Positions 27,828 to 63,492 of a stretch of 64,000 nucleotides of DNA are shown in pieces (the stretch's first letter is position 1; the number at the start of each line of letters is the position of its first letter). Below the pieces are notes generated by a model. That model saw only the letters and a list, made by a program, of their open reading frames with translations, was not told the DNA's origin and did no database searches. Source of the DNA: a virus (Duplodnaviria > Heunggongvirae > Uroviricota > Caudoviricetes); the IMG/VR virus record IMGVR_UViG_3300046096_000179, positions 63,124 through 127,123 of that record. One strand, written 5' to 3'. The position numbers and the translations under genes are program-made.

Positions 27828-27913
27828 TTCCTTTCCGTGGGGATTGGCTATAATAAAAGGTATTGATGCGGATGACTCGGGGTGGCAAGTTCTGAAACGA
27901 TTGGTTGGTAAAA

Positions 27914-28033: not shown

Positions 28034-28101
28034 AATTTTGGTTACCAGCAAGTGGATTGGGCTGTCTCCGAGCATCTGTGGTATATTAGAGTTGATTGAA
28101 T

Positions 28102-28456: not shown

Positions 28457-28943
28457 ACTGACTCCATATTTCACCCCACTAGGAATTGACGTCTCCAAGG
28501 TTCCATTCCATGACGGTTTTGCTGGCTCGATTTATGTCGGACAGTTTCCCTATGCAGGTAAGAATCGTCAAGGTGAACTGACATTCCTTGACTATCCAGT
28601 AGATGTCTTCTATCAACCGAATCCCAAGGTTGAACTGGGGCATTCCCATTACTTCTCGGTCTATACTCGTCATGGTCATTCCTATGTCAGCGATGCATCC
28701 TATGTCACTGACCTAAGGCTTAATGGCGTTGTTGACTCCACTGGCAATATCCTGTATGCTAGGTTCCAGCATGACTTCCGATATACCAATGACGGTAATG
28801 CCGGGGTTGATGGTGGTGGATGGATGAAAGATGGTGATGTCTGGAGTATGTGGGGTCGCACCATTGGTGATAAGGATGGAAACTTCCCCAAGATGGTTCT
28901 GCTCCGTGTTGTTGATGGAAAGCTGGTGCAGGATGAAACTTAA
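28434..28943 (+). CDS. hypothetical protein (about 169 aa) embedded in the array, without the leader
   Basis: Track ORF 28356..28943; first plausible ATG (MTPTMINKL) lies at the end of the preceding member. Confidence 0.45.
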   Translation: MTPTMINKLTPYFTPLGIDVSKVPFHDGFAGSIYVGQFPYAGKNRQGELTFLDYPVDVFYQPNPKVELGHSHYFSVYTRHGHSYVSDASYVTDLRLNGVVDSTGNILYARFQHDFRYTNDGNAGVDGGGWMKDGDVWSMWGRTIGDKDGNFPKMVLLRVVDGKLVQDET

Positions 28944-29131
28944 ACAGCTATCGGTCATTGAACCATCAATGTCGTTTGTCAACATCAAAAAAAGAGTTGA
29001 CTCCATCTCCGGTAGGAGAGGGTTTGATTATGTTTCAAGGTCTTACCTATGGGTTGACATGATCAACGCGGATTTTGGTAGAGAACTTTTTACGGCGGTT
29101 CATTCGGCATTCAGTGGGTGCGTCCGTGGAA

Positions 29132-29302
29132 TTGAGTGAACTGCCGAAGTCTCATCAGTTAGCGGCGAGATTTGATGTAATTAGTCGCCCACTCGCTGGC
29201 GGCATTTTAAGCGCGATCATGGAGAATGAGCATAATGTATGGCGATGGGTGCGTTATCCGGTGCAGCAAGTTCTTGAACGGGTAAATGATGAAATCTTCT
29301 GA
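29132..29302 (+). CDS. DLP-leader family, TTG-start variant ((M)SELPKSHQ...)
   Basis: ttgagtgaactgccgaag matches the minus-strand TTG variant at 50357. Confidence 0.4.
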   Translation: MSELPKSHQLAARFDVISRPLAGGILSAIMENEHNVWRWVRYPVQQVLERVNDEIF

Positions 29303-29483
29303 CCTACCGAAAATACCAATCCCAAGAACCGGGTGGAATGTCTGTTTTGATGCGCATGTTTCGATGAATGACGCATTGGATGAATCATCTGGGATTGAGG
29401 TGCAGTCCGAAGTGATTAACAAAATCGCGTTTCCGGTCTTGGGTATCATGCGCCGGATTTGTGCCAGTACACCGAGTTCTTGA
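29286..29483 (+). CDS. DLP-leader family (MMKSSDLPKI...)
   Basis: Leader. Confidence 0.5.
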   Translation: MMKSSDLPKIPIPRTGWNVCFDAHVSMNDALDESSGIEVQSEVINKIAFPVLGIMRRICASTPSS

Positions 29484-29491
29484 ACGAGTGA

Positions 29492-29692
29492 ATGATGAAA
29501 TCTTCTGACCTGCCAACCATTGCTGTCCCTATCACGAACTTCCATGTTGTTCATGATGTATCAATCCTGTTTGGTGATTTTCTTGGTTTCGCCGAGTACG
29601 AAACATTTGATAAAATCAGAACGCCTGTGATGAATTCTTTGATTCCAACACTTTTTTCCATGGAACTCGAATTTTTAAGTTATAAAATATAA
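29492..29692 (+). CDS. DLP-leader family (MMKSSDLPTI...)
   Basis: Leader. Confidence 0.5.
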   Translation: MMKSSDLPTIAVPITNFHVVHDVSILFGDFLGFAEYETFDKIRTPVMNSLIPTLFSMELEFLSYKI

Positions 29693-29694
29693 CC

Positions 29695-30129
29695 ATGAAC
29701 CAACCCTACATTCAAAATGTTTCACGTCAGGCTCTTGCAACCGGTCAGCACCTCAGACCCAGTGACAATACAATTCTGATTCAGATTGCCGACTGTATTC
29801 AGGGATGCCCTACTCCAACACCCAACAATACCTTCGTTGAAATCCATCAGTTCAACTTCATGGACTCTGAGGAAGATGACCCAATGTTCCCACCAGAGGC
29901 AAAGATCACCACAGAACAAGCCAAGGAAATTGTTGGCATCCTTCGGAATGCATTGGCTAAAAATCAGAACGTGATTGTCCATTGCAATGCCGGTCTTTGT
30001 CGGTCAGGTGCTGTTGCTGAGGTTGGTGTCATGATGGGATTCACGGATACCTTTGCCACTAGGATTCCAAACCTGATGGTCAAGAAGTATCTGATGCGAG
30101 AACTTGGCTGGCTTTATGAAGATCGATGA
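29695..30129 (+). CDS. Cys-based protein phosphatase (dual-specificity/PTP-like, CX5R)
   Basis: VHCNAGLCRSGAV active-site P-loop. Confidence 0.7.
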   Translation: MNQPYIQNVSRQALATGQHLRPSDNTILIQIADCIQGCPTPTPNNTFVEIHQFNFMDSEEDDPMFPPEAKITTEQAKEIVGILRNALAKNQNVIVHCNAGLCRSGAVAEVGVMMGFTDTFATRIPNLMVKKYLMRELGWLYEDR

Positions 30130-30268
30130 CTTACCAAAGATTCACTTGAGTGAATGCAAAGACCTTGCACATTTGATTCGACTCCCACATGGAACATCTT
30201 CAATTGTGATGACTGTCAGCATGCGATGGTCGTTTAAAATCAATCATGCTCTTGGGTTTCGGTTGTGA
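30116..30268 (+). CDS. DLP-leader family (MKIDDLPKI...)
   Basis: Overlaps the phosphatase stop; approximate. Confidence 0.4.
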   Translation: MKIDDLPKIHLSECKDLAHLIRLPHGTSSIVMTVSMRWSFKINHALGFRL

Positions 30269-30447
30269 AAACCTATGAACTACCAAAAATCAATGCAAAA
30301 GACTGGAGCGTCGTAGAATTCTCCGTTACCTTTCTTGGAGGTCATGTTGGAGTTTCTGACTCTGGAGCGAAGCTAAAGACTTACAAAATCACCAATGAAG
30401 TTCACCAAAATTTCGGCGAAATTGTTAGAAACCTGTGGATTCTGTGA
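30265..30447 (+). CDS. DLP-leader family (GTG start; (M)KTYELPKI...)
   Basis: Leader; last member of the array. Confidence 0.45.
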   Translation: MKTYELPKINAKDWSVVEFSVTFLGGHVGVSDSGAKLKTYKITNEVHQNFGEIVRNLWIL

Positions 30448-38939: not shown

Positions 38940-39155
38940 ATGGTAACCAAAAGAAGTAAAAAAGTCAATTCCTACATAATCCAGAGATTGCAGGAGCCAT
39001 CAACCATTCGTGGTCTGATCTTGGTCGCTACTGTTGCTGGTGCCAAACTTAGTCCCGATATGCAGTCGGCCATCTTGGAGATGGGTCTACTGCTAAGTGG
39101 ACTGTTTGCCGTTGCAACACCAGATAAATACAAAGGTCAACTACCTAACAGCTAA
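38940..39155 (+). CDS. small membrane protein; its last codons and stop (..LPNS-stop) lie inside the MITE terminal hairpin
   Basis: RBS ggagaaaatacc ATG; C-terminus encoded by ctacctaacagcTAA. Confidence 0.45.
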   Translation: MVTKRSKKVNSYIIQRLQEPSTIRGLILVATVAGAKLSPDMQSAILEMGLLLSGLFAVATPDKYKGQLPNS

Positions 39156-39371
39156 CGACTATTAGGCTTGCCCGTTCCTCATTCAAACTAAGGCTCTTAT
39201 GTCCTTAGACCTCTCGGTTTTAATCGAATGTTTCTTCAAGGCCATCGGGGGCATTACCCCCGCTTCCGCTATTGCATCGGAATGTTTTTTTGTTTGGTGT
39301 TGAACTTGGTTTTCGTTCAACTTACTATTTAACCCTTTCACAATTCATCCTAACAGCTAAAGACTGTTAGG
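39144..39371 (-). mobile_element. MITE-like deletion derivative (PATE) of the IS200/IS605-family tnpB element, inverted relative to it
   Basis: Both ends carry the 23-nt palindrome cctaacagcta(a/c)(a/c)gact(g/a)ttagg seen at the tnpB element ends; inner flank gaattgtgaaagggttaaatagtaag matches the tnpB 5' flank ggaattgcgaaagggtaaatagtgac; no ORF. Confidence 0.6.
39246..39292 (+). terminator. tandem hairpins (cgggggcattacccccg; ttccg-ctattgcat-cggaa) then T7 run, inside the MITE
   Basis: GC-rich stem-loops followed by ttttttt. Confidence 0.45.
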
Positions 39372-39390
39372 TCTCCTTGCCTAAACATAT

Positions 39391-40164
39391 ATGAACCATA
39401 ATCCGTTTTATCATGGAATCGTCAGAAAGCTGATTGTTGCAGTGGGGTCTATCTTCACCGGGATCAAGATTGAGCGCCGGAACTCACTGGGTGCTGTTGA
39501 GCAGACGATTGATGTCCCTGTATCATACGGTAACCGCGAGAAGTGGCTCCAGAGGCTTCAAGAGGAACCGGAACTGGATAAACGTGTCTTGGTATCCCTC
39601 CCAAGAATCGGGTTTGAGATGACCGGCCTGTCGTATGATCCGGCTCGGAAACTGAACAAGCTGACCCAACTAAGGACATGCGGAGAGACGACCCCCGGAA
39701 ACATTTCTACGGCATTCTCCCCTGTACCATACAACATTGACTTCACGGTTTATGTGATGACCAAGACTCAAGAGGATGGTCTGCAGATTGTTGAACAGAT
39801 TCTGCCATACTTCTCACCCCAGTATGTCATTTCAGTTAATCTGATTCCTGAGATGGGGGTTGTTCAGGATGTTCCATTTACGCTGAATGGTGTTGTGGTG
39901 GATGATTCCTACGAAGGCCCAATGGAAAACCGCCGGGAGATCATCTATACTCTGAACTTCACGGCCAAGACCGAATTCTTGGGGCCGATCAATACCGGCA
40001 GCAATGGTGTGATTATGCACACCCGAGTCAAGATTGATCCGATGTATGGTGAGATTGCTCGTCAGGTAAATACCGATGCGACCGGAACGCCTGAGAATCA
40101 TGTCATCGTGGATGACTTCTTTGACATTGCCAGACCGATAGTGAATCCACCTCCGGTCTTCTGA
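39391..40164 (+). CDS. hypothetical protein
   Basis: 257 aa; convergent with the MTase. Confidence 0.55.
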   Translation: MNHNPFYHGIVRKLIVAVGSIFTGIKIERRNSLGAVEQTIDVPVSYGNREKWLQRLQEEPELDKRVLVSLPRIGFEMTGLSYDPARKLNKLTQLRTCGETTPGNISTAFSPVPYNIDFTVYVMTKTQEDGLQIVEQILPYFSPQYVISVNLIPEMGVVQDVPFTLNGVVVDDSYEGPMENRREIIYTLNFTAKTEFLGPINTGSNGVIMHTRVKIDPMYGEIARQVNTDATGTPENHVIVDDFFDIARPIVNPPPVF

Positions 40165-47330: not shown

Positions 47331-47467
47331 TTGTTTGTTTCCATTGCCAAGTCTCTGGCTTCACGTTCTGAATCTGCTTCCACTTCGACTTCTTCCGAGT
47401 AGGTGTAGATTTTCTTTACAATGAAAGTTGGCATAATGTAGTTTCCTTGTTTGATGACTCTATTGTA

Positions 47468-47797
47468 TCACAGAAAATGTCGGCGATTCACCAAGCAAAC
47501 ACTCATCGTTTTCCCGCCATTGACAGAATGGACTTCCCATCCTTCAAATTCAGGGAAGTAGATTTCCGTCCAGTTGGAATCGTCATTGCCATCAGAGATC
47601 AGCATTGATGGGAAGAACGTCAACTTTCCGTCAGTCATCACGGAACGACAAGGAGTTTCGCAGTAGGCGCGTCCAGTATTACCCCATCCATCCAAACAGA
47701 AAGCAACGACGTTATCAGCCCGGATGACCATGTAGCCTTCTTCACCAACAACGGCATCGCCTTGATGATTAACTGTAACTTTGATCGTATTGGACAT
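47468..47797 (-). CDS. hypothetical protein
   Basis: Minus-strand cassette immediately upstream (47798..47850). Confidence 0.5.
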   Translation of the reverse strand: MSNTIKVTVNHQGDAVVGEEGYMVIRADNVVAFCLDGWGNTGRAYCETPCRSVMTDGKLTFFPSMLISDGNDDSNWTEIYFPEFEGWEVHSVNGGKTMSVCLVNRRHFL

Positions 47798-47850
47798 GAT
47801 GTGGTTCCTTGTTTCGATGGTTCTATTGTATCACAGAAAATCAACTGTAG
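47798..47850 (-). promoter_or_regulatory. promoter-leader cassette (minus strand)
   Basis: Reverse complement is ctacagttgattttctgtgatacaatagaaccatcgaaacaaggaaccacatcATG. Confidence 0.6.
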
Positions 47851-47855
47851 TCGAT

Positions 47856-48401
47856 TCAAGTCCACAGACTTCTGTAGTATTTTCCGAACAATCTCAAACC
47901 ATTGGCGATTCGTTTCTGTCGCTGATCATGTTTAACAAACTCTCCATTCAGAATCATCTCAGTTTCTTCATCGTCACAAACAATCTGCTCAAATGTCCAG
48001 ATCATCTCATCAAGAATCCACACCCACCGCGCATGGAAATGCCCATCGGTGTGATAGTCGTCCTCTGCAGGGAGTAGAGTCGAGTGTAGCCAGATTGGTA
48101 CATCAGAGTCCTCTGTGTATGGAGAGCCGTGCTTCTGTTCTTTGAGCTTTTTCAGCATTGGTAAGATGATGAGCGCCAGAGTGTGATCGGTATTCCAAGT
48201 ATCAAAGTCATCGATCCGAACATCAATCTTTCGCTTCTTCTTAGAATGCACCCACTCACAGAAGTCATTGAGCCAAGTCTCGGATAGCCATTCACCAAAC
48301 GCGTAAACACGGTCATCTTCCTTGTCCATCCAGAACAGAAGTATTCCGGCTATCTGGTATGGCCCATACCAAGTGGTGTAGTTTGAGATTTTAACTTTCA
48401 T
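47856..48401 (-). CDS. hypothetical protein
   Basis: 181 aa. Confidence 0.5.
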   Translation of the reverse strand: MKVKISNYTTWYGPYQIAGILLFWMDKEDDRVYAFGEWLSETWLNDFCEWVHSKKKRKIDVRIDDFDTWNTDHTLALIILPMLKKLKEQKHGSPYTEDSDVPIWLHSTLLPAEDDYHTDGHFHARWVWILDEMIWTFEQIVCDDEETEMILNGEFVKHDQRQKRIANGLRLFGKYYRSLWT

Positions 48402-48419
48402 TATATTGTAGTAGGGAAA

Positions 48420-49745
48420 CCTAACCGTCTTTAGCTGTTAGGAGGAATTGCGAAAGGGTAAATAGTGACATGGAACAACTCAAAGCATTCAAATATAGAA
48501 TCTATCCGACAGCAGATCAAATCAATCGGTTGTCACGGTTCTTTGGTGCAAAGCGTTGGGTCTATAATCACTTCTTGAAGTCTAACACTGAACGCTACAA
48601 AAATCAAGAGAAGCATCTATCTAATTTTGATTGTAACAAAGAAATCACATTCCTCAAGAAAAATGCTGATACATCTTGGTTGAAAGATGTTGACGATTGG
48701 GTCTTGAAACATGCTTCAGAGGACTTGGCAACAGCCTACAAAAACTTCTTTGCTTCTATTACTGGTAAGCGCAAGGGACCGAAAGTTGAACTCCCGACGT
48801 TCAAGAAGAAGTCAAACAGACAATCATACCGGACTCGCGGCGTGAAGGTTGATTTTGAAAATGGCACATTCACTGTGCCGAAAATCAAAAACATACCATG
48901 CAAGTTCCATCGACATTTCCTTGGAACTATCAAGAACGCAACCATCTCCAAAACTCCTGATGGGAAGTATTTCGTTTCATTCTTGGTTGATGCCAACGTC
49001 GCATTGCTGCCACAAACAGAGCGCGAAGTTGGCATTGACTTTGGGATTAAATCATTGGCGGTTCTATCCACCGGACATGAAATTCAGCCATTGAACACAC
49101 AGCTTGAGAAAATCAATCGAGCTATCAAACGTGCTCAGAGAATCCTTGCACGAAAAACAAAGGGTTCGACGAACAGAGAGAAGCAACGAGTATTACTGGC
49201 TAAATTATTTGCCCGGAAGACTCGAATACGCGAACACTATTATCACGAGATTTCGAGTTTTTTGGTCAAGAACTTTGATGCAATTTACTTGGAATCACTG
49301 AATATCAAAGGGATGATGAAGAACAGGAAACTGTCCAGAGCAATCCAAGAATGCTCGTGGTTTTCGCTGATCTCAAAAATATCATACAAATCCAACTTCT
49401 ACGGTAAGACCTTTCACCAGATTTCCAGATGGTTCCCATCATCCAAGACTTGTTCTTGTTGTGGGTTCAAACTGGACAAGTTAAGCCTTGACGTTCGTGA
49501 ATGGTCGTGCCAATCTTGTGGAACACATCATGATCGTGACCTAAACGCTGCCGTGAATATCCTATACCAAGGGCAGATGGATTTGTATGAACAAAAACAA
49601 CCGCAGGAAACAGGCGGTTTGGAACTAAAAATTCCATATTCCTTGCAGAAACATACCACTAAAATCGAGAGATCAGCGGAAGAAATTGCCGTTGTTGGTA
49701 TGTGGAGCAGGAAAGCCTAACAGTCTTTAGCTGTTAGGTAGTTTA
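48420..49745 (+). mobile_element. IS200/IS605-family insertion sequence carrying only tnpB (IS1341-like)
   Basis: Terminal palindromes cctaaccgtctttagctgttagg (48420..48442) and cctaacagtctttagctgttagg (49716..49738) flank an intact tnpB; same ends found on the MITE at 39144..39371. Confidence 0.7.
48470..49720 (+). CDS. tnpB: TnpB (OrfB_IS605 RNA-guided RuvC-like nuclease)
   Basis: N-terminal AFKYRIYPT...FG..RWVYN; RuvC-I GIDFGIK; RuvC-II YLESLN; zinc finger CSCCGFK...CQSCG; RuvC-III HHDRDLNAAVNI. Confidence 0.85.
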   Translation: MEQLKAFKYRIYPTADQINRLSRFFGAKRWVYNHFLKSNTERYKNQEKHLSNFDCNKEITFLKKNADTSWLKDVDDWVLKHASEDLATAYKNFFASITGKRKGPKVELPTFKKKSNRQSYRTRGVKVDFENGTFTVPKIKNIPCKFHRHFLGTIKNATISKTPDGKYFVSFLVDANVALLPQTEREVGIDFGIKSLAVLSTGHEIQPLNTQLEKINRAIKRAQRILARKTKGSTNREKQRVLLAKLFARKTRIREHYYHEISSFLVKNFDAIYLESLNIKGMMKNRKLSRAIQECSWFSLISKISYKSNFYGKTFHQISRWFPSSKTCSCCGFKLDKLSLDVREWSCQSCGTHHDRDLNAAVNILYQGQMDLYEQKQPQETGGLELKIPYSLQKHTTKIERSAEEIAVVGMWSRKA

Positions 49746-49897
49746 CTTTTGATGTTGTTTAGAGATTCATAGATGTCATCATACATTTTGCTACATTCTC
49801 GAATGAAGAAGTAGACTGTCGGCGGTGGTCTACCTACACGAAACCCCAATCGGAATGGCTTGACCCATCGACTACCGATTCTTGGTAGATCATTCAC
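49727..49897 (-). CDS. DLP-leader family (GTG start (M)NDLPRI...) ending ...KLPNS-stop inside the IS right-end palindrome
   Basis: Stop TAA lies in ctacctaacagcTAAagactgttagg (reverse complement of 49716..49745). Confidence 0.4.
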   Translation of the reverse strand: MNDLPRIGSRWVKPFRLGFRVGRPPPTVYFFIRECSKMYDDIYESLNNIKSKLPNS

Positions 49898-50043
49898 TCG
49901 CATTTGGTTGACCTTAATATTGACTCGATTTTGTTTTGCATGTCGTGCAAATCCTCACAGTAGCTTGGATAAGCAATCCTGTTGTCTATCTCAACTAGAA
50001 CGTTAACATAAACATGAATCTTAGGTAATTCAGAGGTCTTCAT
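49894..50043 (-). CDS. DLP-leader family (MKTSELPKIHVY...)
   Basis: ATGAAGACCTCTGA overlap with the upstream stop. Confidence 0.45.
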   Translation of the reverse strand: MKTSELPKIHVYVNVLVEIDNRIAYPSYCEDLHDMQNKIESILRSTKCE

Positions 50044-50194
50044 TGATTTTAACCAAGTTGACAGTTGACTCGTTGATACCAGCCCTTGCTACAGCACAAC
50101 CTCCCGGCGGTAACGGATAAGGCCACCACCATTGAATGAACAATAGCAATATACTATCGTGTTCGTGAATCTTTGGAAGGTCAGAAATTCTCAT
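50030..50194 (-). CDS. DLP-leader family (MRISDLPKI...)
   Basis: Internal start at M54 of track ORF 50030..50353. Confidence 0.45.
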   Translation of the reverse strand: MRISDLPKIHEHDSILLLFIQWWWPYPLPPGGCAVARAGINESTVNLVKINEDL

Positions 50195-50204
50195 TCGATT
50201 CGAT

Positions 50205-50357
50205 CTACGTTGAGACTGTATGGTTTGAGCCAACGAAATGTTCCATGATTCCAAAGAAAGTGGCTCGGAAATAAAGAATATTTCCACTACCACATACCTC
50301 TCCCATGACTTTAAATCTTGCCCAACCGGTATGACCGATCTTTGGTAGTTCACTCAA
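50205..50357 (-). CDS. DLP-leader family, TTG-start variant ((M)SELPKIG...)
   Basis: ttgagtgaactaccaaagatcgg, same as the plus-strand variant at 29132. Confidence 0.35.
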   Translation of the reverse strand: MSELPKIGHTGWARFKVMGEVCGSGNILYFRATFFGIMEHFVGSNHTVST

Positions 50358-50517
50358 TTTCACAATGCTTCGTCAAGTTGATTTTGGAATCCATCATCCC
50401 ACCCAATGCAAGTTTAAACATTGATATTCCGCCAATGTAGATGGTATACCCGATTCCGTGCTTTATATCCAAGGAAATACCATCTATGTGAATCTTTGGT
50501 ATTTCAGAAGTCTTCAT
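50350..50517 (-). CDS. DLP-leader family (MKTSEIPKI...)
   Basis: aaaATGAagacttctgaaatacc; ATGA overlap with the cupin gene stop. Confidence 0.45.
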   Translation of the reverse strand: MKTSEIPKIHIDGISLDIKHGIGYTIYIGGISMFKLALGGMMDSKINLTKHCEIE

Positions 50518-51038
50518 TTTTGTTTTGGAACATCAAACACCAGAGTCAGTCTATCCACGTCAGACACATTCTTGGCGCTATGGGGCTTCTTGTTGTCAAA
50601 CCAGAAGAAAGTCCCCGGCCTGATTATACGCGATTCTCCATCCACTGTATATTCATAATCCCCCTGAATGGACAGATGGTATCTATCCCGAGTCAGATAG
50701 TATGCGCCATCATCAATATGGGTAGACACAGCACCGCCGGGAGGCAGACGAAAGAATGCACACCGGGAGATGTTCTTCAGACCATACCGAGCCCAGAATG
50801 CATGCACCGATGGGAACAGTTTATATGCCCGTGTATTGGCCTGAAGTTCAGAGTCCTTGATGTTATCTCCGGGATTCTGGATAGCGCCCATGATCAGAGG
50901 CAGGAAACCGGGTGGGTTCTTATCACCACCAATGTTCTGCATCTGACTGACCATGCTCCACATAGAGGAATTCTGCTCAAGTTGAATCAGGATGTCCTGA
51001 ATCGGCTCTTGCATGGATATGATGCGAAAATTATTCAT
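50514..51038 (-). CDS. cupin-fold protein, possibly an Asp/Asn beta-hydroxylase-like oxygenase (tentative)
   Basis: RLPPGGAVSTHIDDGAYYL...KPHSAKN suggests an HxD...H metal site. Confidence 0.4.
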   Translation of the reverse strand: MNNFRIISMQEPIQDILIQLEQNSSMWSMVSQMQNIGGDKNPPGFLPLIMGAIQNPGDNIKDSELQANTRAYKLFPSVHAFWARYGLKNISRCAFFRLPPGGAVSTHIDDGAYYLTRDRYHLSIQGDYEYTVDGESRIIRPGTFFWFDNKKPHSAKNVSDVDRLTLVFDVPKQK

Positions 51039-51063
51039 TTGATTGGTGGCTTTACTAAGTTTA

Positions 51064-51228
51064 TCACAGAGAATCGCCCAATGCTGCTAACTGAAGCATA
51101 ATTGCTTTACCACCAAGGAGTTCTTTGGCTGCTATGCAATAGATGATGGTATTTTCAGAAAATGTAAACTTACATTCAAAAATGTCTTGGATGTGATAAT
51201 TGTTTGATGGCAGGTCACTCACTCGCAT
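51064..51228 (-). CDS. DLP-leader family (MRVSDLPSN...)
   Basis: Internal start M33 of track ORF 51064..51324. Confidence 0.45.
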   Translation of the reverse strand: MRVSDLPSNNYHIQDIFECKFTFSENTIIYCIAAKELLGGKAIMLQLAALGDSL

Positions 51229-51389
51229 TGGATTCAAGCTCTTCAATTCGATTTGCTGCTTCCTCCAGCAGTGAAGCCAACCGATCCGACTCTCCATTCT
51301 GGACAGACCGGCGACCAACAGCATTCTTACGAATTTCGGCTCGGATTCTTAGCTTCTGAACAAGAGATTGCGTATCAAATGGTGGGTAA

Positions 51390-51671
51390 TCACGACCAAC
51401 CATACTTTGCCTTCAGTTGAACGTAGGTTTTCCGATCAATCACTTCCTGCAAAAGATACCGTTGTGTATACTCAGTCATTTCTTCTGGCGTCATGTCTCG
51501 CTCACCACGAAAAGAAACCAATCCATGTTCAACATCATCAACCAACACGTTAGTCAATCCTTTATAACACATTTCATTCTTCACCGAAATGAAATTGTCA
51601 ATCGTTGCTGAGATGTCAGCACCAATTTCGATGTAGACGGTTTTGTAGTTACTGATTTTTGGATAGTTCAT
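51390..51671 (-). CDS. hypothetical protein
   Basis: 93 aa. Confidence 0.5.
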   Translation of the reverse strand: MNYPKISNYKTVYIEIGADISATIDNFISVKNEMCYKGLTNVLVDDVEHGLVSFRGERDMTPEEMTEYTQRYLLQEVIDRKTYVQLKAKYGWS

Positions 51672-52033
51672 TCAATGTCCCCACGGTTAATGCAGCGCAA
51701 TGCGTTGCGGTGTTGTTCTGCGGCTTCTTTGGTTCGGTGGGCCACGCCTTCGGCTATTACCTTTTCAATCCCTGCTTTAGAACAAAGATACTGAACTCCA
51801 CAATTATCGAATGTCCAAACATCACTCTTGATCGGAACCTCTTTAAGCGGTTCCTGCCATTCATGGCGACCTACGCGAATCATTTTAACTTCTGAGGGCT
51901 TGCTTCGGCATTCAACGTTTTTATGGAATGATGGTGACAGTGTGTCAACCCACCCCCAGTGTTCTTTGATTTGAATTTTAATCGTGCAGTCGTCTGCATA
52001 GGCTTTCATCAATTCGGCATGTGGGTGTTTCAT
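51668..52033 (-). CDS. hypothetical protein
   Basis: Minus-strand cassette variant (ttacaatagaacc) upstream. Confidence 0.5.
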   Translation of the reverse strand: MKHPHAELMKAYADDCTIKIQIKEHWGWVDTLSPSFHKNVECRSKPSEVKMIRVGRHEWQEPLKEVPIKSDVWTFDNCGVQYLCSKAGIEKVIAEGVAHRTKEAAEQHRNALRCINRGDIE

Positions 52034-52092
52034 GATTTAGGTTCCTTTTGTTGGTTTAGATGGTTCTATTGTAACACCAAAATCAACTGTAG

Positions 52093-52551
52093 TCAATCTC
52101 TACACAAAAACTTTTCCATGAACACTCCCTTTATGCTCTTGGAGTCGTCCTCAACTCCAAGTTCCTTGACCACCTTGGACATGACCAACTCGTTTGGCAA
52201 CCGAGATTTCTTTTCCAAGGTGAACCCAATCTTCTCTCCGGCAATAGCAACCGCAGAGCTACGACAGACTCCTGCATAGCAATGGACAACCACATCCCAT
52301 CCATTCCTATAACTGTTCAACAGGATGTTTGCAATTCTCTTGGCATCATCGTTTGTAATGGCGTTGTGATTGTTTTTGTCTTCTGTATCCTCGAAGATGA
52401 ATCGACAGACATATTTGAATTCATCTGGTGGTCGAGGAAACTGTCCTTCATCCTCATCAAGAATCTGGATTAAGACTGTATTCTTTGTGTCAGTGACAAC
52501 ATAATTTCCTTTTTGGATGTCATCCTTGGAATAGTGTTGGATCGTTGGCAT
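52093..52551 (-). CDS. Cys-based protein phosphatase (CX5R), paralogue 2
   Basis: VVHCYAGVCRSSAVA. Confidence 0.7.
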   Translation of the reverse strand: MPTIQHYSKDDIQKGNYVVTDTKNTVLIQILDEDEGQFPRPPDEFKYVCRFIFEDTEDKNNHNAITNDDAKRIANILLNSYRNGWDVVVHCYAGVCRSSAVAIAGEKIGFTLEKKSRLPNELVMSKVVKELGVEDDSKSIKGVFMEKFLCRD

Positions 52552-52867
52552 TATGTTCTTTCAGGAATGTTTCGATGTGGCGTAGCGCGTCTTCAGCTTG
52601 ACATGCCGAACAGTCGCTAACATATTGAGCGTCGCATTGTACTCTGGAAATGATATCACGGATGAACTCAATCGACGTTTGGTTGCTCTGTTGAACAGGA
52701 GCAAGAACAAACCCGCCATTCACGGCAGGGTCTGTTGCAACGTCAATGTGCCAGTTGATCAGTTCATCAAGTTTCTTCTTGGCTTTATCGTAACTGTCAG
52801 AAGAATCAGCAATTCCAAGATGAGCAGAAACGAGTTCTGTGTCAACGGCTCTTTGATATGGGTTCAT
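52520..52867 (-). CDS. hypothetical protein
   Basis: 115 aa. Confidence 0.5.
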   Translation of the reverse strand: MNPYQRAVDTELVSAHLGIADSSDSYDKAKKKLDELINWHIDVATDPAVNGGFVLAPVQQSNQTSIEFIRDIISRVQCDAQYVSDCSACQAEDALRHIETFLKEHNANDPTLFQG

Positions 52868-52944
52868 TTCAATTCTTTCAAGATTTCATTGCACATTTCG
52901 AGACAATAATCGACTTTCCTTCGTGTGGTTTCGATGGCGCGGGA

Positions 52945-53289
52945 TCATCTGGCCGGATACCTTGGCACCATATCCACATAGAAACGTTCGTTCATCGGCT
53001 TGTGCGAATCTGCTACCGGAAGTTGTGACGGCGTTTGTGCTGAAGGTTTGTCAAAGACCATCTTGGTTACAAATTCCAATGAATTATTAGCTGCGGCAAT
53101 TGATTCTTGAATCTGCATATGTCGCTCGATTTCTATAACTACCCGAGACCACACCGGTGAGTGTAATAGAATTGCATGGACGTACCCACGCGAATCTGGT
53201 TCAGCCCCATGTGCTACTTGCTGGTCTGGGTCAATACCGCGCAGCTTACACAGATGACGGGCTGCTTTCTCAAGTTGTTCTGGGGTCAT
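52945..53289 (-). CDS. hypothetical protein in a GC-rich island
   Basis: High GC; shares 16-nt repeat ggtttcgatggcgcgg with the next gene. Confidence 0.45.
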   Translation of the reverse strand: MTPEQLEKAARHLCKLRGIDPDQQVAHGAEPDSRGYVHAILLHSPVWSRVVIEIERHMQIQESIAAANNSLEFVTKMVFDKPSAQTPSQLPVADSHKPMNERFYVDMVPRYPAR

Positions 53290-53807
53290 TCCTGTACTCC
53301 AAACTGTTTGCGTACTGCGGTTTCGATGGCGCGGGCGAACTTTGTTGGGGCATAGGTAAAGTCAACCTGCTCCATGACCTGCGAAAGCTGTTCATCCGTC
53401 AACCGTGGCGGTGTTTGCGCTGGGGGTGCGGGGGTTAACGCTTGACGCACAGCCGCATCCAATTCTTCATGCGCCGTGCGCTTCAGGTTGGTGCTGCCTG
53501 TCAGGTGTGCGTCCCGGAAGTCATAGGCGGCACCCATGATTGAGCCGTACACCGATTCATCATCAGCGTGTGTTTGCGCTGGGGGTGCGGCGGCGTACAG
53601 TTCAGTGCCATTCTTCATCTCGTCGTAAAGCTGCACAAGCGAACCATCCGCACACTCTCCGATGTATTTCGCCGCCGGCTCCCCCGGCTTCAGCGCAGCC
53701 TCAAGGGCTGTACGGAGTTCCGACTCTGCTCTTGTCTTTGCTCCAATGCTGAGAGCGTTAGCCATTGCCCAAGCCAGCACCATCAAATCGTCAATTTGTT
53801 TGGTCAT
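53286..53807 (-). CDS. hypothetical Ala/Pro-rich protein in a GC-rich island
   Basis: High GC; internal nucleotide repeat gtttgcgctgggggtgcgg at about 53418 and 53566; cassette upstream (53808..53868). Confidence 0.5.
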   Translation of the reverse strand: MTKQIDDLMVLAWAMANALSIGAKTRAESELRTALEAALKPGEPAAKYIGECADGSLVQLYDEMKNGTELYAAAPPAQTHADDESVYGSIMGAAYDFRDAHLTGSTNLKRTAHEELDAAVRQALTPAPPAQTPPRLTDEQLSQVMEQVDFTYAPTKFARAIETAVRKQFGVQE

Positions 53808-53868
53808 AATAAAGTTCCCTTTGTTTCGATGGTTCTATTGTATCGCAGAAAAATCAAATGTAGTCAAT
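53808..53868 (-). promoter_or_regulatory. promoter-leader cassette (minus strand)
   Basis: Reverse complement is ctacatttgatttttctgcgatacaatagaaccatcgaaacaaagggaactttattATG. Confidence 0.55.
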
Positions 53869-53973
53869 TGCTTGCAAGAATTTGCGACAAAATCGTCCCC
53901 GTGTTGCGTTTAGCTTTAGGCACAAGGATTGCTAATCGAAACAAATACCGAATCTGGTTGCAATCTAGGTTGT

Positions 53974-54210
53974 CTATATCTTCTTGGGGCATGATTTTAA
54001 GCTCCTAATCGCATCTGCGTGAGTTAGTTCAGGTGAACATTCTTCGGAGAACGCCTCTGTTACTTTTGCAGCTTCTTCCAATGCAAAATTGCGACATTCT
54101 TTGAATGCAGATTCAAGGGGTTCCTTGAACACGGCGATTGCTTTTTCTTGGCTTTCTGTTCCATCATGGAACGCAAGCACCGAATTAAAACTTAGGATCA
54201 GTTCGTTCAT
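53974..54210 (-). CDS. hypothetical protein
   Basis: 78 aa. Confidence 0.45.
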   Translation of the reverse strand: MNELILSFNSVLAFHDGTESQEKAIAVFKEPLESAFKECRNFALEEAAKVTEAFSEECSPELTHADAIRSLKSCPKKI

Positions 54211-54425
54211 TCAGATTCACCTTCTTCTGGAAAGTCATTGCGCTTCCCTGTCCACCCACAGGACTGGCACTTTACAACAGCATCACTGTCCTGAACCTTG
54301 ACGGAGTGGCAGTAGAATTCGTTGGTGTTCATGTCAAACGCAGTTTGCTCGTAAACTAGCAACTCTGTAGAGTCACAGGTTGGGCACTTGTAACGAGCCT
54401 CTGGCGTCTTCTTAGGTTTGCTCAT
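54207..54425 (-). CDS. zinc-ribbon protein
   Basis: CPTCDS...CQSCG. Confidence 0.5.
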   Translation of the reverse strand: MSKPKKTPEARYKCPTCDSTELLVYEQTAFDMNTNEFYCHSVKVQDSDAVVKCQSCGWTGKRNDFPEEGESE

Positions 54426-54511
54426 TTCACAACTTTCTTTGGTTTAGTCATGATCTAGATTTCCTTGGTTTGTTTCGATGGTTCTATTATATCACAACTC
54501 TGGAACTGTAA

Positions 54512-55060
54512 TCAATTAGGTTTCGTGTAGCTGAAAACAACTTTATCATCAACCACACTCAGGTAACCACCATTGTCTTTGTCGTATTGGTATGGCTTTG
54601 TAATCCAAAAATTCAGACAATTTTTATCTTGGACATACCATTCAGCTCGATTCTGACTCTCCAAGTTAAAATCTTCGATGTCAACCAAAGGTTCCGTCAT
54701 CAGAGAAACGCCGGTTGAATAGTAGCCATTGCTGGAGCCATAGAAGCGAACGTCAACCCAACCCTTGATGGTCGCCAGTTTGTAGAACGTCCACTGTTCG
54801 GCATCAAATTCCGATGTGCTATCCTTACTGGATTCTTGTGCAACCAGAATTTCCGAACCAACCAAGTCTTCAAGGTCTCCAACAATGGATTCAATGTGAA
54901 CGTCCTCGCAGCACTCTTGACAATGCATCAGCGTGAATTGAATGCCATCATCACCAACAAAAGTAATAGATGCATCATCGCTGGTTACTGAAGTGAAAGT
55001 CTTGCCCTTCAGGGTTTCAAATGGAACGGATTGTTCGCGGAGTTTGATTTTGATGGTCAT
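54512..55060 (-). CDS. hypothetical protein
   Basis: True start MTIKIKL after the cassette (track reads the cassette as CDTIGHHQQETYIM). Confidence 0.55.
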   Translation of the reverse strand: MTIKIKLREQSVPFETLKGKTFTSVTSDDASITFVGDDGIQFTLMHCQECCEDVHIESIVGDLEDLVGSEILVAQESSKDSTSEFDAEQWTFYKLATIKGWVDVRFYGSSNGYYSTGVSLMTEPLVDIEDFNLESQNRAEWYVQDKNCLNFWITKPYQYDKDNGGYLSVVDDKVVFSYTKPN

Positions 55061-55094
55061 GATGTAAGTTTCCTGTTGATGGTGTCCTATTGTA

Positions 55095-55838
55095 TCACAG
55101 AAGCCCAAGAAGTTCTCGTTCTTCCTTGGTCAGTTTACTCAGTGCAGATTGTTTCTTGGCAATCAGAATCTCTTGTTCCCTGAGTTGCTTAATTGCTTTG
55201 TTGAGTGAACGCCGAACATCTTCCATTGATTCAACAAAATCGACAATCTCGCGGTAAGACATTTCATCAGGAAGCACAACCGGGAATGTCTTAGCCAAAG
55301 CATCAAATTTAAACTCATTGTTGTCGAGCAGAACTCGGCAATTCATGGTCATGTGATCGGCAATCATCGACAACAGATTGTGTTGATAGGTAGAACGGAA
55401 CTCAACAGCTTCTTTTTCTTGTTGTTCTTTGCGGAGTTGTTCGGTAGCGGCTTGCTTCTCTGCCTTTGTGATGCGAGGCTTATTGGTGACTTCTTTTACC
55501 TTGCGACAGAGGTTCCAGTCTGCCTGCATTTTCTCAAACAGGTTCGTAAAATCTTGCATTGCGGTTTCTGTACAGAAACCATCCCTGTCAAGGTGACCGT
55601 GATCGCTCAGCGTATACTCATATTCCCCACCCTTCAATCCTGAGAAAGTCTCCGTAACGGCTTTATTGATAACGGCAATAATTTCGGCGGCAGTCATCAC
55701 TCGCAATGCTGGTTGAAATGCCACGGCATAGAACGCGCCGGGGCGAGGATGCGGATTCTCAAATCCATTGAAAAAGTAATCGGGGTCGATTAGTTGAGTA
55801 TCAGCCAGAAAATGTTTAACTTCGCGCAGGGTGGTCAT
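55095..55838 (-). CDS. hypothetical protein
   Basis: 247 aa; cassette at 55839..55892. Confidence 0.55.
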   Translation of the reverse strand: MTTLREVKHFLADTQLIDPDYFFNGFENPHPRPGAFYAVAFQPALRVMTAAEIIAVINKAVTETFSGLKGGEYEYTLSDHGHLDRDGFCTETAMQDFTNLFEKMQADWNLCRKVKEVTNKPRITKAEKQAATEQLRKEQQEKEAVEFRSTYQHNLLSMIADHMTMNCRVLLDNNEFKFDALAKTFPVVLPDEMSYREIVDFVESMEDVRRSLNKAIKQLREQEILIAKKQSALSKLTKEERELLGLL

Positions 55839-55892
55839 GATGTAGGTTCCTTGGTTTGTTTCGATGGTTCTATTGTATCACAGAAAATCAGT
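55839..55892 (-). promoter_or_regulatory. promoter-leader cassette (minus strand)
   Basis: Reverse complement is ctgattttctgtgatacaatagaaccatcgaaacaaaccaaggaacctacatcATG. Confidence 0.6.
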
Positions 55893-56280
55893 AAGGAGAA
55901 ACACTAACAGTGAAAAGTTTGATGGTTCCGTCTTTGATCATCCGAAGTCCATGATCGTTGAAGTCGTTGAACCGAATAGCATCACCAACCTTGACCTTTC
56001 TGTCTTTCCGTCCATCGCAATAGAACACCCATTCGCCAGTGATTGATACTGGAACTATGTAGCATGTCTTACTAACTCCATCGAAATGCTCTGGGATGCG
56101 GTCACGAATTGTATGGTGGATGATGTCAACTTTCTTATCAGCTAAACCAAGAGCATCCTGAAGTTTCTGAATCACCGGGAAATCAGATTCGTCCATGAAA
56201 TCTTGTGCCCACTGCTTTGATGAAAGTTTGCTCATCCTGCCTGAAACTGCTTTCAGCCCACGTGGAAGAATGAATTTCAT
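55888..56280 (-). CDS. hypothetical protein
   Basis: 130 aa. Confidence 0.5.
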   Translation of the reverse strand: MKFILPRGLKAVSGRMSKLSSKQWAQDFMDESDFPVIQKLQDALGLADKKVDIIHHTIRDRIPEHFDGVSKTCYIVPVSITGEWVFYCDGRKDRKVKVGDAIRFNDFNDHGLRMIKDGTIKLFTVSVSPY

Positions 56281-56492
56281 GATTGGTGACGGAGATGCAA
56301 TGTACGGAAAGGAATCACATCAGAGATTTGATGGGGAACATTTCCGGTTGCTGTTTTGCAGAAACTGTGGACACTTGCCAAATGGCAGAACACCCCAGTC
56401 TCCGATTCAACCCCGACACTGATGATTTTCCAGACAAAACCATCAAACTGAACGATGGTGTTCATGAGGTCGGCTTCTGTGTATTTGGTCAT
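56277..56492 (-). CDS. hypothetical protein
   Basis: Cassette at 56493..56545. Confidence 0.5.
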   Translation of the reverse strand: MTKYTEADLMNTIVQFDGFVWKIISVGVESETGVFCHLASVHSFCKTATGNVPHQISDVIPFRTLHLRHQS

Positions 56493-56545
56493 GATGTAGT
56501 TCCTTGTTTCGATTGTTCTATTGTATCACACAAAATCACCCGTAG

Positions 56546-56758
56546 TCAATTCCAACAAACAAAACATACAGATAACATGACAACCACCCACGCCAACCAA
56601 CGATTCCAATGCTTCTGATAACTGACATGGCTGTAATTGCATGGGTTGTCTCTCCAACGTGGATGGTTCAGAATCCTACGTTTGGTCAGATCGGAAATTT
56701 CGCGGGCAATAACGAAGGCCCGAAGATCAGATGGGATGTAATCTGGGATATACATCAT
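56546..56758 (-). CDS. hypothetical protein with C-terminal TM
   Basis: 70 aa. Confidence 0.4.
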   Translation of the reverse strand: MMYIPDYIPSDLRAFVIAREISDLTKRRILNHPRWRDNPCNYSHVSYQKHWNRWLAWVVVMLSVCFVCWN

Positions 56759-60812: not shown

Positions 60813-61078
60813 TCTGTCACCACTTTCTTTGGTGGGCGACCGGGTTTACGTCGAACCTTGATTTTTGTGTCCAAGTCCTTGATGGCAACCAGCAGTTCCC
60901 CGGTGGTGGCATCTGCCCATCCTTGCTTCGTTGCCACAGATTCGGTATATGTTGGCTTTGTTCTGAGCAAGGCATCAATCAAAGTCGAATTCTTGACCGG
61001 CTCCTTTTGCTGAACCGGAAGTTCCCCATTGCTTGGTACCGTTGCCTCTGCGACCGGTTGTTTCTTTTTCATTCTCAA
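60809..61078 (-). CDS. hypothetical basic protein (AT-hook-like RRKPGRPPKK)
   Basis: 89 aa. Confidence 0.45.
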   Translation of the reverse strand: MRMKKKQPVAEATVPSNGELPVQQKEPVKNSTLIDALLRTKPTYTESVATKQGWADATTGELLVAIKDLDTKIKVRRKPGRPPKKVVTE

Positions 61079-62186
61079 TTTCCTTGGTTGTCTCTGCCAA
61101 GTGAGCAGAGTTTTCTACGTTAAACATTTTCATTCTGGCAAAGTCCATCCCGACAATAAACTTCCGAAAGTAATTCAGGTCACCAAAACGATTCTTTAGC
61201 TGCTTCAGGATCATCTGATTCATGGCATTCAGGTCATCGGTTCGGATAATTGCCAGCAGGGAATCGCATGTCTTATATGGACCAGTTGAATCTGCAATTG
61301 CCTCAATGTCGTAATCGGAAGCATTCATACCAGCCCGATTTGTCTGAACAGATGACCACAATAGAATATCCATCTCAACCGCCAGTGCCCTTAGTTCCTC
61401 AGCAACGGATGTCTGGTAGGTATAGGTGTTGACTGTGGATGAATTCCTATATCTTGCTGATGCACAGATGCCCAAGTAATCAACAAAAATGACGTCGGGA
61501 ACAAATCCCTTCTTGTTCTTGAGTTCATCCAAGAGAATGCGAATAGTTGCCGCACTGGCAGTTCCTGTTGGATATTCCTTGATGACCAGCTTCCCATGCG
61601 TCTTCTCATTCAGCTTAGAAATCTTGTTCATGAACACCGCCTTGGGGATGTTCTTGATCTCGGATACGTTCTGGTTGAACATATTGGCATCAATTCTCTC
61701 GGCCACCCGCTTCTCGGCCAGTTCCAAGGTCACATACAGAACATTATACCCCTGCTGGAGATAGTCTGCGGCCAAGGAGCATTTAACGGCAGATTTTCCA
61801 ACGCCGCTATTGTGACTTGATATTCCGTTTGTGTAATACCGATGATTTGGATGGTTGACATGAATGTCAACAATTGGTATTTTATTTCCGGTTTTCCTGA
61901 TTACTCCGCTGCAGAATCCAGTTTTACATAAGTAGTCAGTGCGACCAAAAAGATGACGATCATGTGCCTTAACCCACCCATCGCGAGTCTCAAACAGGTG
62001 ATTTGCGTTGCAATTCACTGTAACCCCATCATCGGTCTCCAATACATATTCGTCATACATCCCCTTATGAAAAAAATCAGTAACCGATACCCACCCATCT
62101 GGAGATTCGATTTCAACATCATAGTCCCCCAAAAGGGACTCTATGTCCCCAATTTTAATTGTCATTACAGAAGAAAAATCGATCAT
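60975..62186 (-). CDS. 41: C-terminal split-intein fragment (IntC, 126 aa) fused to the C-terminal extein of the DnaB-family replicative helicase (T4 gp41-like)
   Basis: Intein blocks TVNCNANHLF (B) and VDIHVNHPNHRYYTNGISSHN (F/G) then Ser+1; extein SGVGKSAVKCSLAADYLQQGYNVLYV...IFVDYLGI...LRALAVE matches T4 gp41 (recalled). Confidence 0.8.
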   Translation of the reverse strand: MIDFSSVMTIKIGDIESLLGDYDVEIESPDGWVSVTDFFHKGMYDEYVLETDDGVTVNCNANHLFETRDGWVKAHDRHLFGRTDYLCKTGFCSGVIRKTGNKIPIVDIHVNHPNHRYYTNGISSHNSGVGKSAVKCSLAADYLQQGYNVLYVTLELAEKRVAERIDANMFNQNVSEIKNIPKAVFMNKISKLNEKTHGKLVIKEYPTGTASAATIRILLDELKNKKGFVPDVIFVDYLGICASARYRNSSTVNTYTYQTSVAEELRALAVEMDILLWSSVQTNRAGMNASDYDIEAIADSTGPYKTCDSLLAIIRTDDLNAMNQMILKQLKNRFGDLNYFRKFIVGMDFARMKMFNVENSAHLAETTKEIENEKETTGRRGNGTKQWGTSGSAKGAGQEFDFD

Positions 62187-63492
62187 GTTTAAAGAAATAT
62201 ATAATAAGTTATGCGAACGAGGTAAGAGTCGTCGAGAATTGTGGAGCGTCGGTAGCGGATTTCATCGACACCATGTAATCCCAAGACATGCGGGTGGGGT
62301 GGACTCCGAAGATAACTATACATACCTAACGGTTAGAGAACATATTATAGCACACTTTCTGTTGTGGAAGGTCAACAAAACACCAAACGATTTGCGGTCA
62401 ATGAGGATGTTGGGCGCAAGCCTGACACCAAATCAACGGAGAGAGACTGGGATTTTCTGTCGAGATAACAAAATAGGGATTTTCTCTGATGATTGGAATG
62501 GACTTTCGGAGGCCGGGAAGCGCGGAGGTAGCGCATGTCGAGATAACAAAATAGGGATACATGCACAAACTCCAGAAGAAAGACGAGAACTGGCATCCAT
62601 TGGCGGGAAAATTGGCGGAGCCCGTTGCTACTCTATTGGCGTTGGATTGTTTGGGATGTCTCGGGAAAAATTATTGGCAGCATGTAAATTGGGAGGAGAA
62701 GTTGGTGGTCGGGCAGGGAAGGGTATGGTTTTTTGGACAAACGGGCGCGATCAAACGCGAGCATTTGAATGTCCCGGCGATGGTTGGGTAAATGAGCAAT
62801 TGCCAACGGAGAAGCAACTAATCACCAGAGAAGAAAGAAAGACATCAATAAAATTTAGAATAAAAAATAAAAGAACTGGGGAAATGGGGGAATTTCTTCC
62901 GACCCCAAATTATTCAATCGAAGATTTTATTTTAAACGAACAGGATTGGGAACTTACAAGAAAATATCAGCGAGTAATGAAGCATAATGTTTACTTAAAA
63001 ATTTCCAATGAACTGTTGTCTGAATTCATCAATATGAATTGGAAGATTTTAGCAAACGTCAACAAAACACATCGCGATATAAAAGAGTTTCATTCGGAAA
63101 AGTCAACAGGCATATTCTATAAAAATAAAATAGAAACGAAAATACCTCTGAGGTTAGTTGACATCTTCGTATCGGAGGGCTGGTCTCTATATAAAGACAC
63201 TCTAACTAAAGTCGTATCTTTTGGGAAATATAAGATACAAATAAACCCAGAGCATCTAAGTCACTTCTTAAAGTTAGGGTGGACACAACAACGCTCAACG
63301 ACTCGTTCCCAGAAAACAAACCCAGGATGTATGATGAGATGCAAAACAACACACATACAAATAAAGGTTGAATTTCAAGACGTTGCGCTCATGCAACAAC
63401 ATGGGTTCTTTGTTTCTTCAACAAATGAACATGAGCGAAGGAGAATCAAAAGAATGTTACACAATCTTTCTCTTGATTCTAACATTGACTAA
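62185..63492 (+). CDS. free-standing HNH homing endonuclease with repeated C-terminal modules
   Basis: HNH motif GFHRHHVIPRHAGGVDSEDNYTYLTVREHIIAH; repeats CRDNKIGI...; ATG overlaps the IntC ATG on the opposite strand (CATG); alternative start 62143. Confidence 0.8.
   Translation: MFKEIYNKLCERGKSRRELWSVGSGFHRHHVIPRHAGGVDSEDNYTYLTVREHIIAHFLLWKVNKTPNDLRSMRMLGASLTPNQRRETGIFCRDNKIGIFSDDWNGLSEAGKRGGSACRDNKIGIHAQTPEERRELASIGGKIGGARCYSIGVGLFGMSREKLLAACKLGGEVGGRAGKGMVFWTNGRDQTRAFECPGDGWVNEQLPTEKQLITREERKTSIKFRIKNKRTGEMGEFLPTPNYSIEDFILNEQDWELTRKYQRVMKHNVYLKISNELLSEFINMNWKILANVNKTHRDIKEFHSEKSTGIFYKNKIETKIPLRLVDIFVSEGWSLYKDTLTKVVSFGKYKIQINPEHLSHFLKLGWTQQRSTTRSQKTNPGCMMRCKTTHIQIKVEFQDVALMQQHGFFVSSTNEHERRRIKRMLHNLSLDSNID

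Follow-up and report, generated by a model that had tools for sequence, protein, structure and literature searches.

TnpB-only insertion sequences of the IS200/IS605 family are already known from T4-like phages: ISCaje1-3, described in 2010 in the Campylobacter phages CP220 and CPt10, are elements of this type (PMC2853527). They occupy different sites in related virulent myoviruses, alongside homing endonuclease genes, in a paper that predates knowledge of the omegaRNA (PMC2853527). TnpB-driven, TnpA-independent spread to plasmids and co-infecting phages, termed 'non-restorative homing', is discussed in a 2026 review (PMC13565253); our literature search found the idea proposed, and no report showing RNA-guided homing of this kind for a phage-borne TnpB. 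Here we describe an element of 1,345 bp at positions 48402-49746 of a 64,000-nucleotide stretch of the Caudoviricetes virus record IMGVR_UViG_3300046096_000179 (positions 63,124 to 127,123 of the record; hereafter the window). It encodes TnpB only, as does the IS1341 group, and by description it resembles ISCaje1-3 in being a tnpB-only IS200/IS605 element in a T4-like phage, although the phage group differs. Judged from its sequence, it belongs to the IS200/IS605 family as a non-autonomous, tnpB-only (IS1341-type) copy. The original prediction had called it an intact tnpB-only element of this family, and the full-length open reading frame (ORF), its three Pfam domains and the absence of TnpA from the window bear this out.

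Ends, target site and empty sites

Empty sites were located by searching with the 181-aa protein encoded beside the element (47856-48401, minus strand), and two related phage lineages were found to lack the element. The contigs L094 and L097 encode a flanking protein that is 88% identical, with ~86% DNA identity; 1,345 bp are missing from them and the sequence on either side is collinear with that of the window: L094 3797-3999 corresponds to window 49953-49748 and L094 4001-4603 to window 48401-47795. L097 comes from the same Joint Genome Institute sample as one contig that carries the window element. The second lineage, L224, was recovered from a metagenome scan with the 181-aa protein. Its flanking protein is 79% identical, its flanks are collinear and the element is missing; the remaining relatives in that scan were at most 51% identical. 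Flank identity at the empty sites was ~80-87%. Read in window orientation, the empty junction is AACTTTCAT followed directly by ATTTGACGTTCTTTAGAG in L094 (for L094/L097 also written AACTTTCAT followed by ATTTGACG) and AACTTTCAT followed by TTTTTGGCGTTCTTTAGAG in L224 (also written AACTTTCAT followed by TTTTTGGCG). The filled junction of the window is AACTTTCAT, then 48402-49746, then TTTTGATGTTGTTTAGAG, also written as TTCAT, 1,345 bp and TTTTGATG. These exact empty sites in relatives bound the element at 48402 and 49746 and indicate that it is not fixed in the lineage. The comparison with related phages that the original prediction had advised was thus informative, and an ancient copy held at the identical position in all relatives, which it had named as the contrary outcome, is at odds with the absence of the element from L094/L097 and L224.

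Comparison of filled and empty sites further showed that insertion took place 3' of the pentanucleotide TTCAT (48397-48401, plus strand) without target duplication. This pentanucleotide is kept in the flank, is retained in the L094/L097 and L224 empty sites, and is the reverse complement of ATGAA, that is, the start codon plus 2 nt of the gene at 47856-48401 (minus strand). The element is antisense to its flanking genes and sits at the exact boundary between two of them, with the stop region of a small ORF on one side and the start codon ATG of the neighbouring gene on the other.

The left end (LE; 48402-48469, plus strand, 68 nt) holds a subterminal hairpin at 48420-48442 and the sequence GGTAAATA-N5-ATG at 48457-48472. 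At the right end (RE), a subterminal hairpin with an 8-bp stem and a 7-nt loop (49716-49738, plus strand) encloses the tnpB stop codon (49718-49720) and is followed by the terminus TAGTTTAC (49739-49746, plus strand), for which an alignment of 43 RE regions together with the empty sites gave the family consensus TAGTTGAC and the last base C49746. All compared copies end eight bases past the hairpin at TAGTTGAC, the window copy reading TAGTTTAC. Both hairpins are formed by the 23-nt palindrome CCTAACAGTCTTTAGCTGTTAGG, which is exact at 49716-49738 and carries one mismatch at 48420-48442. It recurs on the minus strand at 39349-39371 and 39144-39166, so that the window holds four matches against none expected from 100 shuffles. 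The stem of the RE hairpin covaries among relatives (CCTAACAG/CTGTTAGG, CTGCATGA/TCATGCAG and CCGCGTCC/GGACGCGG). The earlier proposal that these palindromes bound the element was therefore right as to the palindromes and wrong as to the ends: they are subterminal hairpins, the true ends lie outside them at 48402 and 49746, and these ends are not inverted repeats of each other. As a separate observation on such hairpins, two near-identical TnpB elements elsewhere (L013, at 5921-5943, and L014) share the same LE stem and have the 7-nt loop in opposite orientation, TCTTTAG in one and CTAAAGA in the other.

The two minus-strand palindromes belong to a second element at 39 kb, a miniature inverted-repeat transposable element (MITE), which provided another insertion for comparison. 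In six of six copies, namely the window element, the MITE, L008, L012, L013 and L014, TTCAT or TTCAA precedes the LE hairpin by 18-19 nt, and these six copies occupy six different sites. It is an established rule that the transposon-associated motif (TAM) recognized by TnpB equals the target site of the transposon. Since the two coincide, we infer from the six copies and the empty sites that the TAM is TTCAW, in line with the expectation that it could be read from the flanks. The tnpB element and the MITE both lie antisense and directly before the ATG of the next gene, and each exchanges the last codons of the preceding ORF for ...LPNS and a stop, read from the RE hairpin. No compositional sign of recent import was seen, the element having 41.6% G+C, within 1.5 standard deviations of the window (44.6 +/- 2.0).

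The nuclease, its guide RNA and the companion MITE

The ORF at 48470-49720 (plus strand, ATG start, 416 aa), identified by Pfam, by alignment to ISDra2 and by its relatives, is a full-length TnpB, a predicted RNA-guided RuvC nuclease. Pfam matches were obtained to HTH_OrfB_IS605 (residues 1-48, E 8e-17), OrfB_IS605 (residues 181-286, E 4e-21) and Cas12f1-like_TNB (residues 297-364, E 5e-22). The best natural structural match was ISDra2 TnpB (8bf8/8ex9/8exa and 8h1j; E 4.6e-72), with residues 4-366 aligned. The catalytic residues D190 (GIDFG), E275 (YLESL) and D357 (HDRD) correspond to D191, E278 and D361 of ISDra2 TnpB, and the ligands of the CxxC-CxxC zinc finger (C328, C331, C347 and C350) are in place. 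The catalytic triad and the zinc cysteines are invariant in 26 aligned relatives of 53-64% identity, so the full set of TnpB hallmarks claimed at the outset survives careful alignment, with no catalytic residue substituted.

Identical TnpB proteins were found on eight metagenomic contigs, all of the same phage and at the same site, and the nearest non-identical relative is 64% identical. Relatives at 46-64% identity come from viral contigs or from large metagenomic ones, and several of these contigs also have T4-like genes. Among the matches listed from species-representative bacterial and archaeal genomes, the best TnpB was at most 43% identical. TnpB homologues occurred in 433 of 50,697 phage records.

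To search for the Y1 transposase, a TnpA hidden Markov model was built from the IS200 TnpA of a Thermus phage and from TnpA proteins adjoining related tnpB genes. No Y1 TnpA was found with this model in a six-frame translation of the 64-kb window (best E 1.2), and for this reason the copy is classed as IS1341-type, tnpB-only. Likewise, no TnpA was found within 4-6 kb of the copies of the subclade with CCTAAC hairpins (L008, L012, L013 and L014). On other viral contigs, an intact Y1 TnpA does lie beside tnpB in four relatives with matching LE hairpins (L015, L017, L182 and L211), and fragments of one in three (L018, L188 and L203). In L015 and L017 the LE hairpin is found beyond tnpA, as expected of full IS605-type elements.

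The sequence at 49600-49746 (plus strand, ~147 nt), which overlaps the last ~40 codons of tnpB, is a conserved structured RNA and the predicted omegaRNA scaffold, as indicated by covariation, folding and nhmmer. It comprises stems A and B, two long-range helices, stem C, a terminal hairpin and a pseudoknot (49608-49611 with 49741-49744). A search with AGAAA-N9-AAAAYCGAGAGRYC, a motif that related elements conserve at their 3' ends, retrieved 50 loci on viral contigs, and 27 diverse RE regions were aligned for covariation. The RNAalifold consensus of this alignment contained 34 pairs, and compensatory changes were seen in 27. When a seven-helix structure with the pseudoknot was drawn manually, 97.6% of cells paired, compared with 22-47% when partners were slid by 1-3 columns; 30 of its 37 pairs had changed on both sides, and none of 500 shuffles reached the observed values. 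The terminal hairpin would also be the DNA hairpin that TnpA recognizes, so covariation in that hairpin alone is no proof of RNA function. The pseudoknot joins the loop of the first hairpin (CAAC) to the last bases of the element (GTTG), and the window copy departs from the family here and at one other place, with compensation in both. Its RE end reads GTTTAC rather than GTTGAC and the pseudoknot partner is AAAC rather than CAAC; before the terminal hairpin it reads AGGAAAG rather than GGGCAAG and the partner is TCCT. Folded alone, the window scaffold adopts the same architecture (-47.1 kcal/mol, z -4.1). An nhmmer profile found exactly two scaffolds in the 64 kb, one here (E 1.8e-31) and one in the MITE (E 1.1e-31). 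An Rfam search over 38.8-50.2 kb returned no omegaRNA family and a chance Histone3 match alone. The original prediction had expected an omegaRNA at the 3' end of tnpB or the right end, and the covariation-supported scaffold falls there.

The guide lies directly 3' of the RE in the established architecture of TnpB and its omegaRNA. From this position, the predicted guide is the right flank TTTTGATGTTGTTTAGAGAT (49747-49766, plus strand), which lies within the 3' end of a small ORF at 49727-49903 (minus strand). Within the window, only the donor junction comes close to matching TAM plus guide, and there the guide-matching sequence is preceded by TTTAC and not by TTCAT. A 5' side that is not a TAM is how such elements are understood to escape cutting themselves.

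The MITE (39136-39390, minus strand) is 255 bp long, contains no ORF and joins an LE, with its hairpin at 39349-39371, to an omegaRNA scaffold (39136-39282) that includes the RE hairpin (39144-39166). It is inserted 3' of TTCAT (39391-39395), directly upstream of the ATG of a gp15-like tail sheath stabilizer gene. Its scaffold folds alone to the same architecture (-46.6 kcal/mol, z -3.5), and the sequence following the RE end GTTGAC at 39136, CTTTGTATTTATCTGGTGTT (39116-39135, minus strand), is by its position the predicted guide. Its LE is 90.6% identical to that of the window element over 53 nt, and its scaffold is 80% identical to those of L221/L012 (P0002/P0003-type) and 65.6% identical to that of the window element. 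The MITE is therefore a relative, not a derivative, of the window tnpB copy. The earlier description of a derived MITE next to the element was correct in that the MITE is real; it lies 9 kb away and is by sequence no deletion derivative of the window copy, and it therefore offers no sign of a recent move by that copy within this genome. An empty site for the MITE was sought through gp15, and viral contigs offered a single relative of that protein, L223 at 56% identity, with a different gene upstream. P0002 elements occur on T4-like contigs from the same samples, and the P0002 contig L008 has no overlap with the window. Copies consisting of an omegaRNA only are frequent on viral contigs. One such contig of 129 kb, IMGVR_UViG_3300035180_000343 (loci L177, L189, L191, L202 and L215), carries at least five omegaRNA scaffolds, some with tnpB and some MITE-like, so the family has multiplied inside individual phage genomes.

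Expression signals around tnpB were also recorded. The sequence GGTAAATA-N5-ATG at 48457-48472 looks like a T4 late-promoter box, from which the mRNA would have little or no leader, and eight relatives (L015-L021 and L028) have a (T)ATAAATA box whose distance from the tnpB ATG is 5 nt (range 4-6 nt). The T4 late-promoter box TATAAATA is not enriched in the window (one found, about one expected), and the sequence upstream of tnpB is only a lead as a possible promoter. The RE hairpin with its T-rich tail scored as terminator-like.

Arrival and persistence in the phage

We favour, with a probability of roughly 0.6, the reading that the element arrived by TnpA acting in trans and has since persisted and spread as an RNA-guided homing element. 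The first landing would have been single-strand 'peel-and-paste' transposition by a Y1 TnpA supplied in trans. The omegaRNA would then be transcribed from the 3' end of tnpB through the RE into ~16-20 nt of flank, and the loaded TnpB would cut a co-infecting sibling genome at an empty site, that is, at TTCAT with the matching flank (TTCAT+TTTTGATGTTGTTTAG). The donor junction would be spared because TTTAC, not TTCAT, precedes the flank that matches the guide. Repair dependent on recombination, which is typical of T4-like phages, would finally copy the element into the cut genome. One contig bears on this last step. L006 (Logan SRR35435457), compared over 47828-49906, is 100% identical to window 48043-49906, which comprises the element with ~360 and 160 bp of flanks, and 30 differences, all outside the element, are packed into the 190 bp at 47853-48042. 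This edge ~360 bp from the element marks a recombination boundary and is compatible with a co-conversion tract, which lends weak support to homing.

Several observations weigh against this reading. Different insertion sites in different phages call for transposition rather than homing. The L094 empty site mismatches the guide at positions 1, 7 and 11, proximal to the TAM, and the L224 site differs from it by a 1-nt indel and substitutions that are also TAM-proximal; with such mismatches the known empty sites would probably escape cleavage, which leaves no susceptible target among those observed. An exact search of viral contigs found no strain-level empty site, but the filled junction was likewise absent from them, and this absence therefore carries no weight. 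With a single full copy in the window and the nearest protein relative at 64% identity, there is no sign of a recent burst. Finally, no sigma-70-type promoter was found on the plus strand upstream of tnpB.

The element may instead be an inert passenger, delivered once by TnpA in trans and now silent and immobile, its TnpB and omegaRNA unexpressed or idle and its arrival too recent for decay. We regard this as a possible though less probable account. It draws on the lack of TnpA in the window, the lack of a recognisable promoter upstream of tnpB, the antisense position relative to all flanking genes, the single copy whose nearest relative is 64% identical, and the failure to observe an empty target matched to the guide. 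What an idle element does not readily explain is a full-length ORF with every catalytic residue and zinc ligand intact. The lineage-specific changes in the omegaRNA (the GTTTAC end, and AGGA for GGGC) are moreover compensated on the partner strand, which speaks in favour of ongoing selection to keep the RNA fold in the window lineage. The clade at 46% identity or more also resides on viral or large metagenomic contigs, the bacterial and archaeal matches listed reaching 43% at best. An extension in the opposite direction, which we consider rather doubtful, would make this a TnpB-omegaRNA lineage resident in T4-like phages and not in bacteria, which homes among co-infecting phages independently of TnpA and lands before start codons, with the omegaRNA-only MITEs serving as guide cassettes in trans against sibling phages. 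Landing exactly before start codons would follow from TTCAT being the reverse complement of ATGAA. If this were true, the resident TnpB and the MITE guides would amount to a rudimentary multi-guide nuclease system against sibling phages.

Cutting might also serve exclusion rather than copying. As an exapted weapon between phages, TnpB with its omegaRNA, possibly aided by the MITE guide, would cut competitors at conserved gene junctions and so exclude or kill them. Two omegaRNA scaffolds with different guides in one genome, the location of both guides at conserved gene junctions and the co-occurrence of related phages in sample 3300046313 fit such a role, and nuclease-mediated competition between phages has precedent (cited in PMC13565253). 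We nevertheless hold it to be improbable: the protospacers of known relatives are mismatched in the seed, and use of the MITE scaffold in trans is uncertain at 65.6% identity to the cognate one. A nuclease-dead regulator resembling TldR, or phage regulatory hairpins that merely look like insertion sequence ends, would suit the position of the element exactly at a gene start, where a bound protein might in principle alter how the 181-aa gene is expressed, and would suit the terminator-like RE hairpin and T-rich tail. TldR proteins have lost the RuvC catalytic residues, and with them the transposon ends. Here the triad and the transposon ends are both intact, the ends are precise and of insertion sequence type with an empty site in relatives, and the same hairpins are found around tnpB in other phages at unrelated positions, making this last account very improbable.

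Phage context and comparison with known systems

The gene content of the window is T4-like, as had been stated in the original prediction, and includes a gp15-type tail sheath stabilizer, an RNase H-type exonuclease, a phage DsbA, a DnaB-like helicase and Seg-like nucleases. The best isolate matches of the gp15-like protein are Methylophilales phage Melnitz (47%) and cyanomyoviruses (~40%), and a megablast search of INPHARED phages with the region returned nothing; the phage has no close sequenced isolate. Siblings that lack the window element bear other tnpB genes within ~1.3-1.5 kb of the empty site (L094 1564-2670, on the contig also numbered L030, and L224 3990-4168). The one in L094 is 41% identical and lies sense to its flanking genes, unlike the window copy. 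This region of small genes seems to be a hotspot for TnpB elements.

Small ORFs that share the N-terminus MK(T/L)S(D/E)LPKI lie at 18946-30292 (plus strand) and 49727-51324 (minus strand) of the window. Starts resembling ATGAAAACATCTGACCTGCC number fourteen on the plus strand, and several on the minus strand adjoin the tnpB element. Because these ORFs all start with ATGAA, the reverse complement of TTCAT, any of them could serve as an insertion site. Many small genes in two divergent blocks (9424-35889, plus strand; 47427-56552, minus strand) are preceded by repeated modules of the type TTGACTACAG...TGTGATACAATAGAACCATC...AAGGAA...ATG, which look like early promoters with an extended -10 and a ribosome-binding site. 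Other candidate mobile nucleases were noted. Two paralogous ORFs of the DUF7487 / SegE-GIY-YIG-like type, of 418 aa (25646-26902, minus strand) and 188 aa (24292-24858, minus strand), are 77% identical over their first ~283 nt, and the shorter one looks truncated. The ORF of the DnaB-like helicase (60975-62186, minus strand) abuts an ORF at 62143-63492 (plus strand) that matches a PHROG 'homing endonuclease' family; this second ORF may encode a further mobile nuclease sited beside a gene for replication.

The locus is a well-documented and unusually well-resolved but ordinary case, such elements being already known in phages, and it does not change existing knowledge of TnpB or of T4-like phages. 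It is of use chiefly as a clean natural test case, in which an intact TnpB, a well-supported omegaRNA, a candidate TAM, exact filled and empty alleles in phages from the same environment and a companion MITE are found together, supplying substrates for testing RNA-guided homing between co-infecting phages.

Compared with the TnpB-omegaRNA of ISDra2 from Deinococcus radiodurans (PDB 8exa/8h1j/8bf8), the window element has the same three-domain TnpB with conserved D/E/D and CxxC-CxxC residues. As in ISDra2, the scaffold overlaps the 3' end of tnpB, ends at the RE and contains a pseudoknot, and the 5-nt TAM equals the target site. Unlike ISDra2, it lacks tnpA, its predicted TAM is TTCAT/TTCAA and not TTGAT, its host replicon is a T4-like phage, and its activity is a prediction. 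The 255-bp MITE is like MITEs of the palindrome-associated transposable element (PATE) type in keeping the LE and the RE/omegaRNA alone; it is unlike a simple PATE deletion derivative in that its LE resembles the window element and its omegaRNA resembles the sister lineage. The free-standing homing endonucleases of T-even phages (Seg and Mob) offer a probable likeness in the way of working, as selfish nucleases that lie between conserved genes, cut the allele without the element and are copied by recombination (PMC13565253). The window element differs from Seg and Mob in that its target would be recognized by a guide RNA and a TAM rather than by protein, that self and non-self would be told apart by presence or absence of the insertion, and that the protein families are others.

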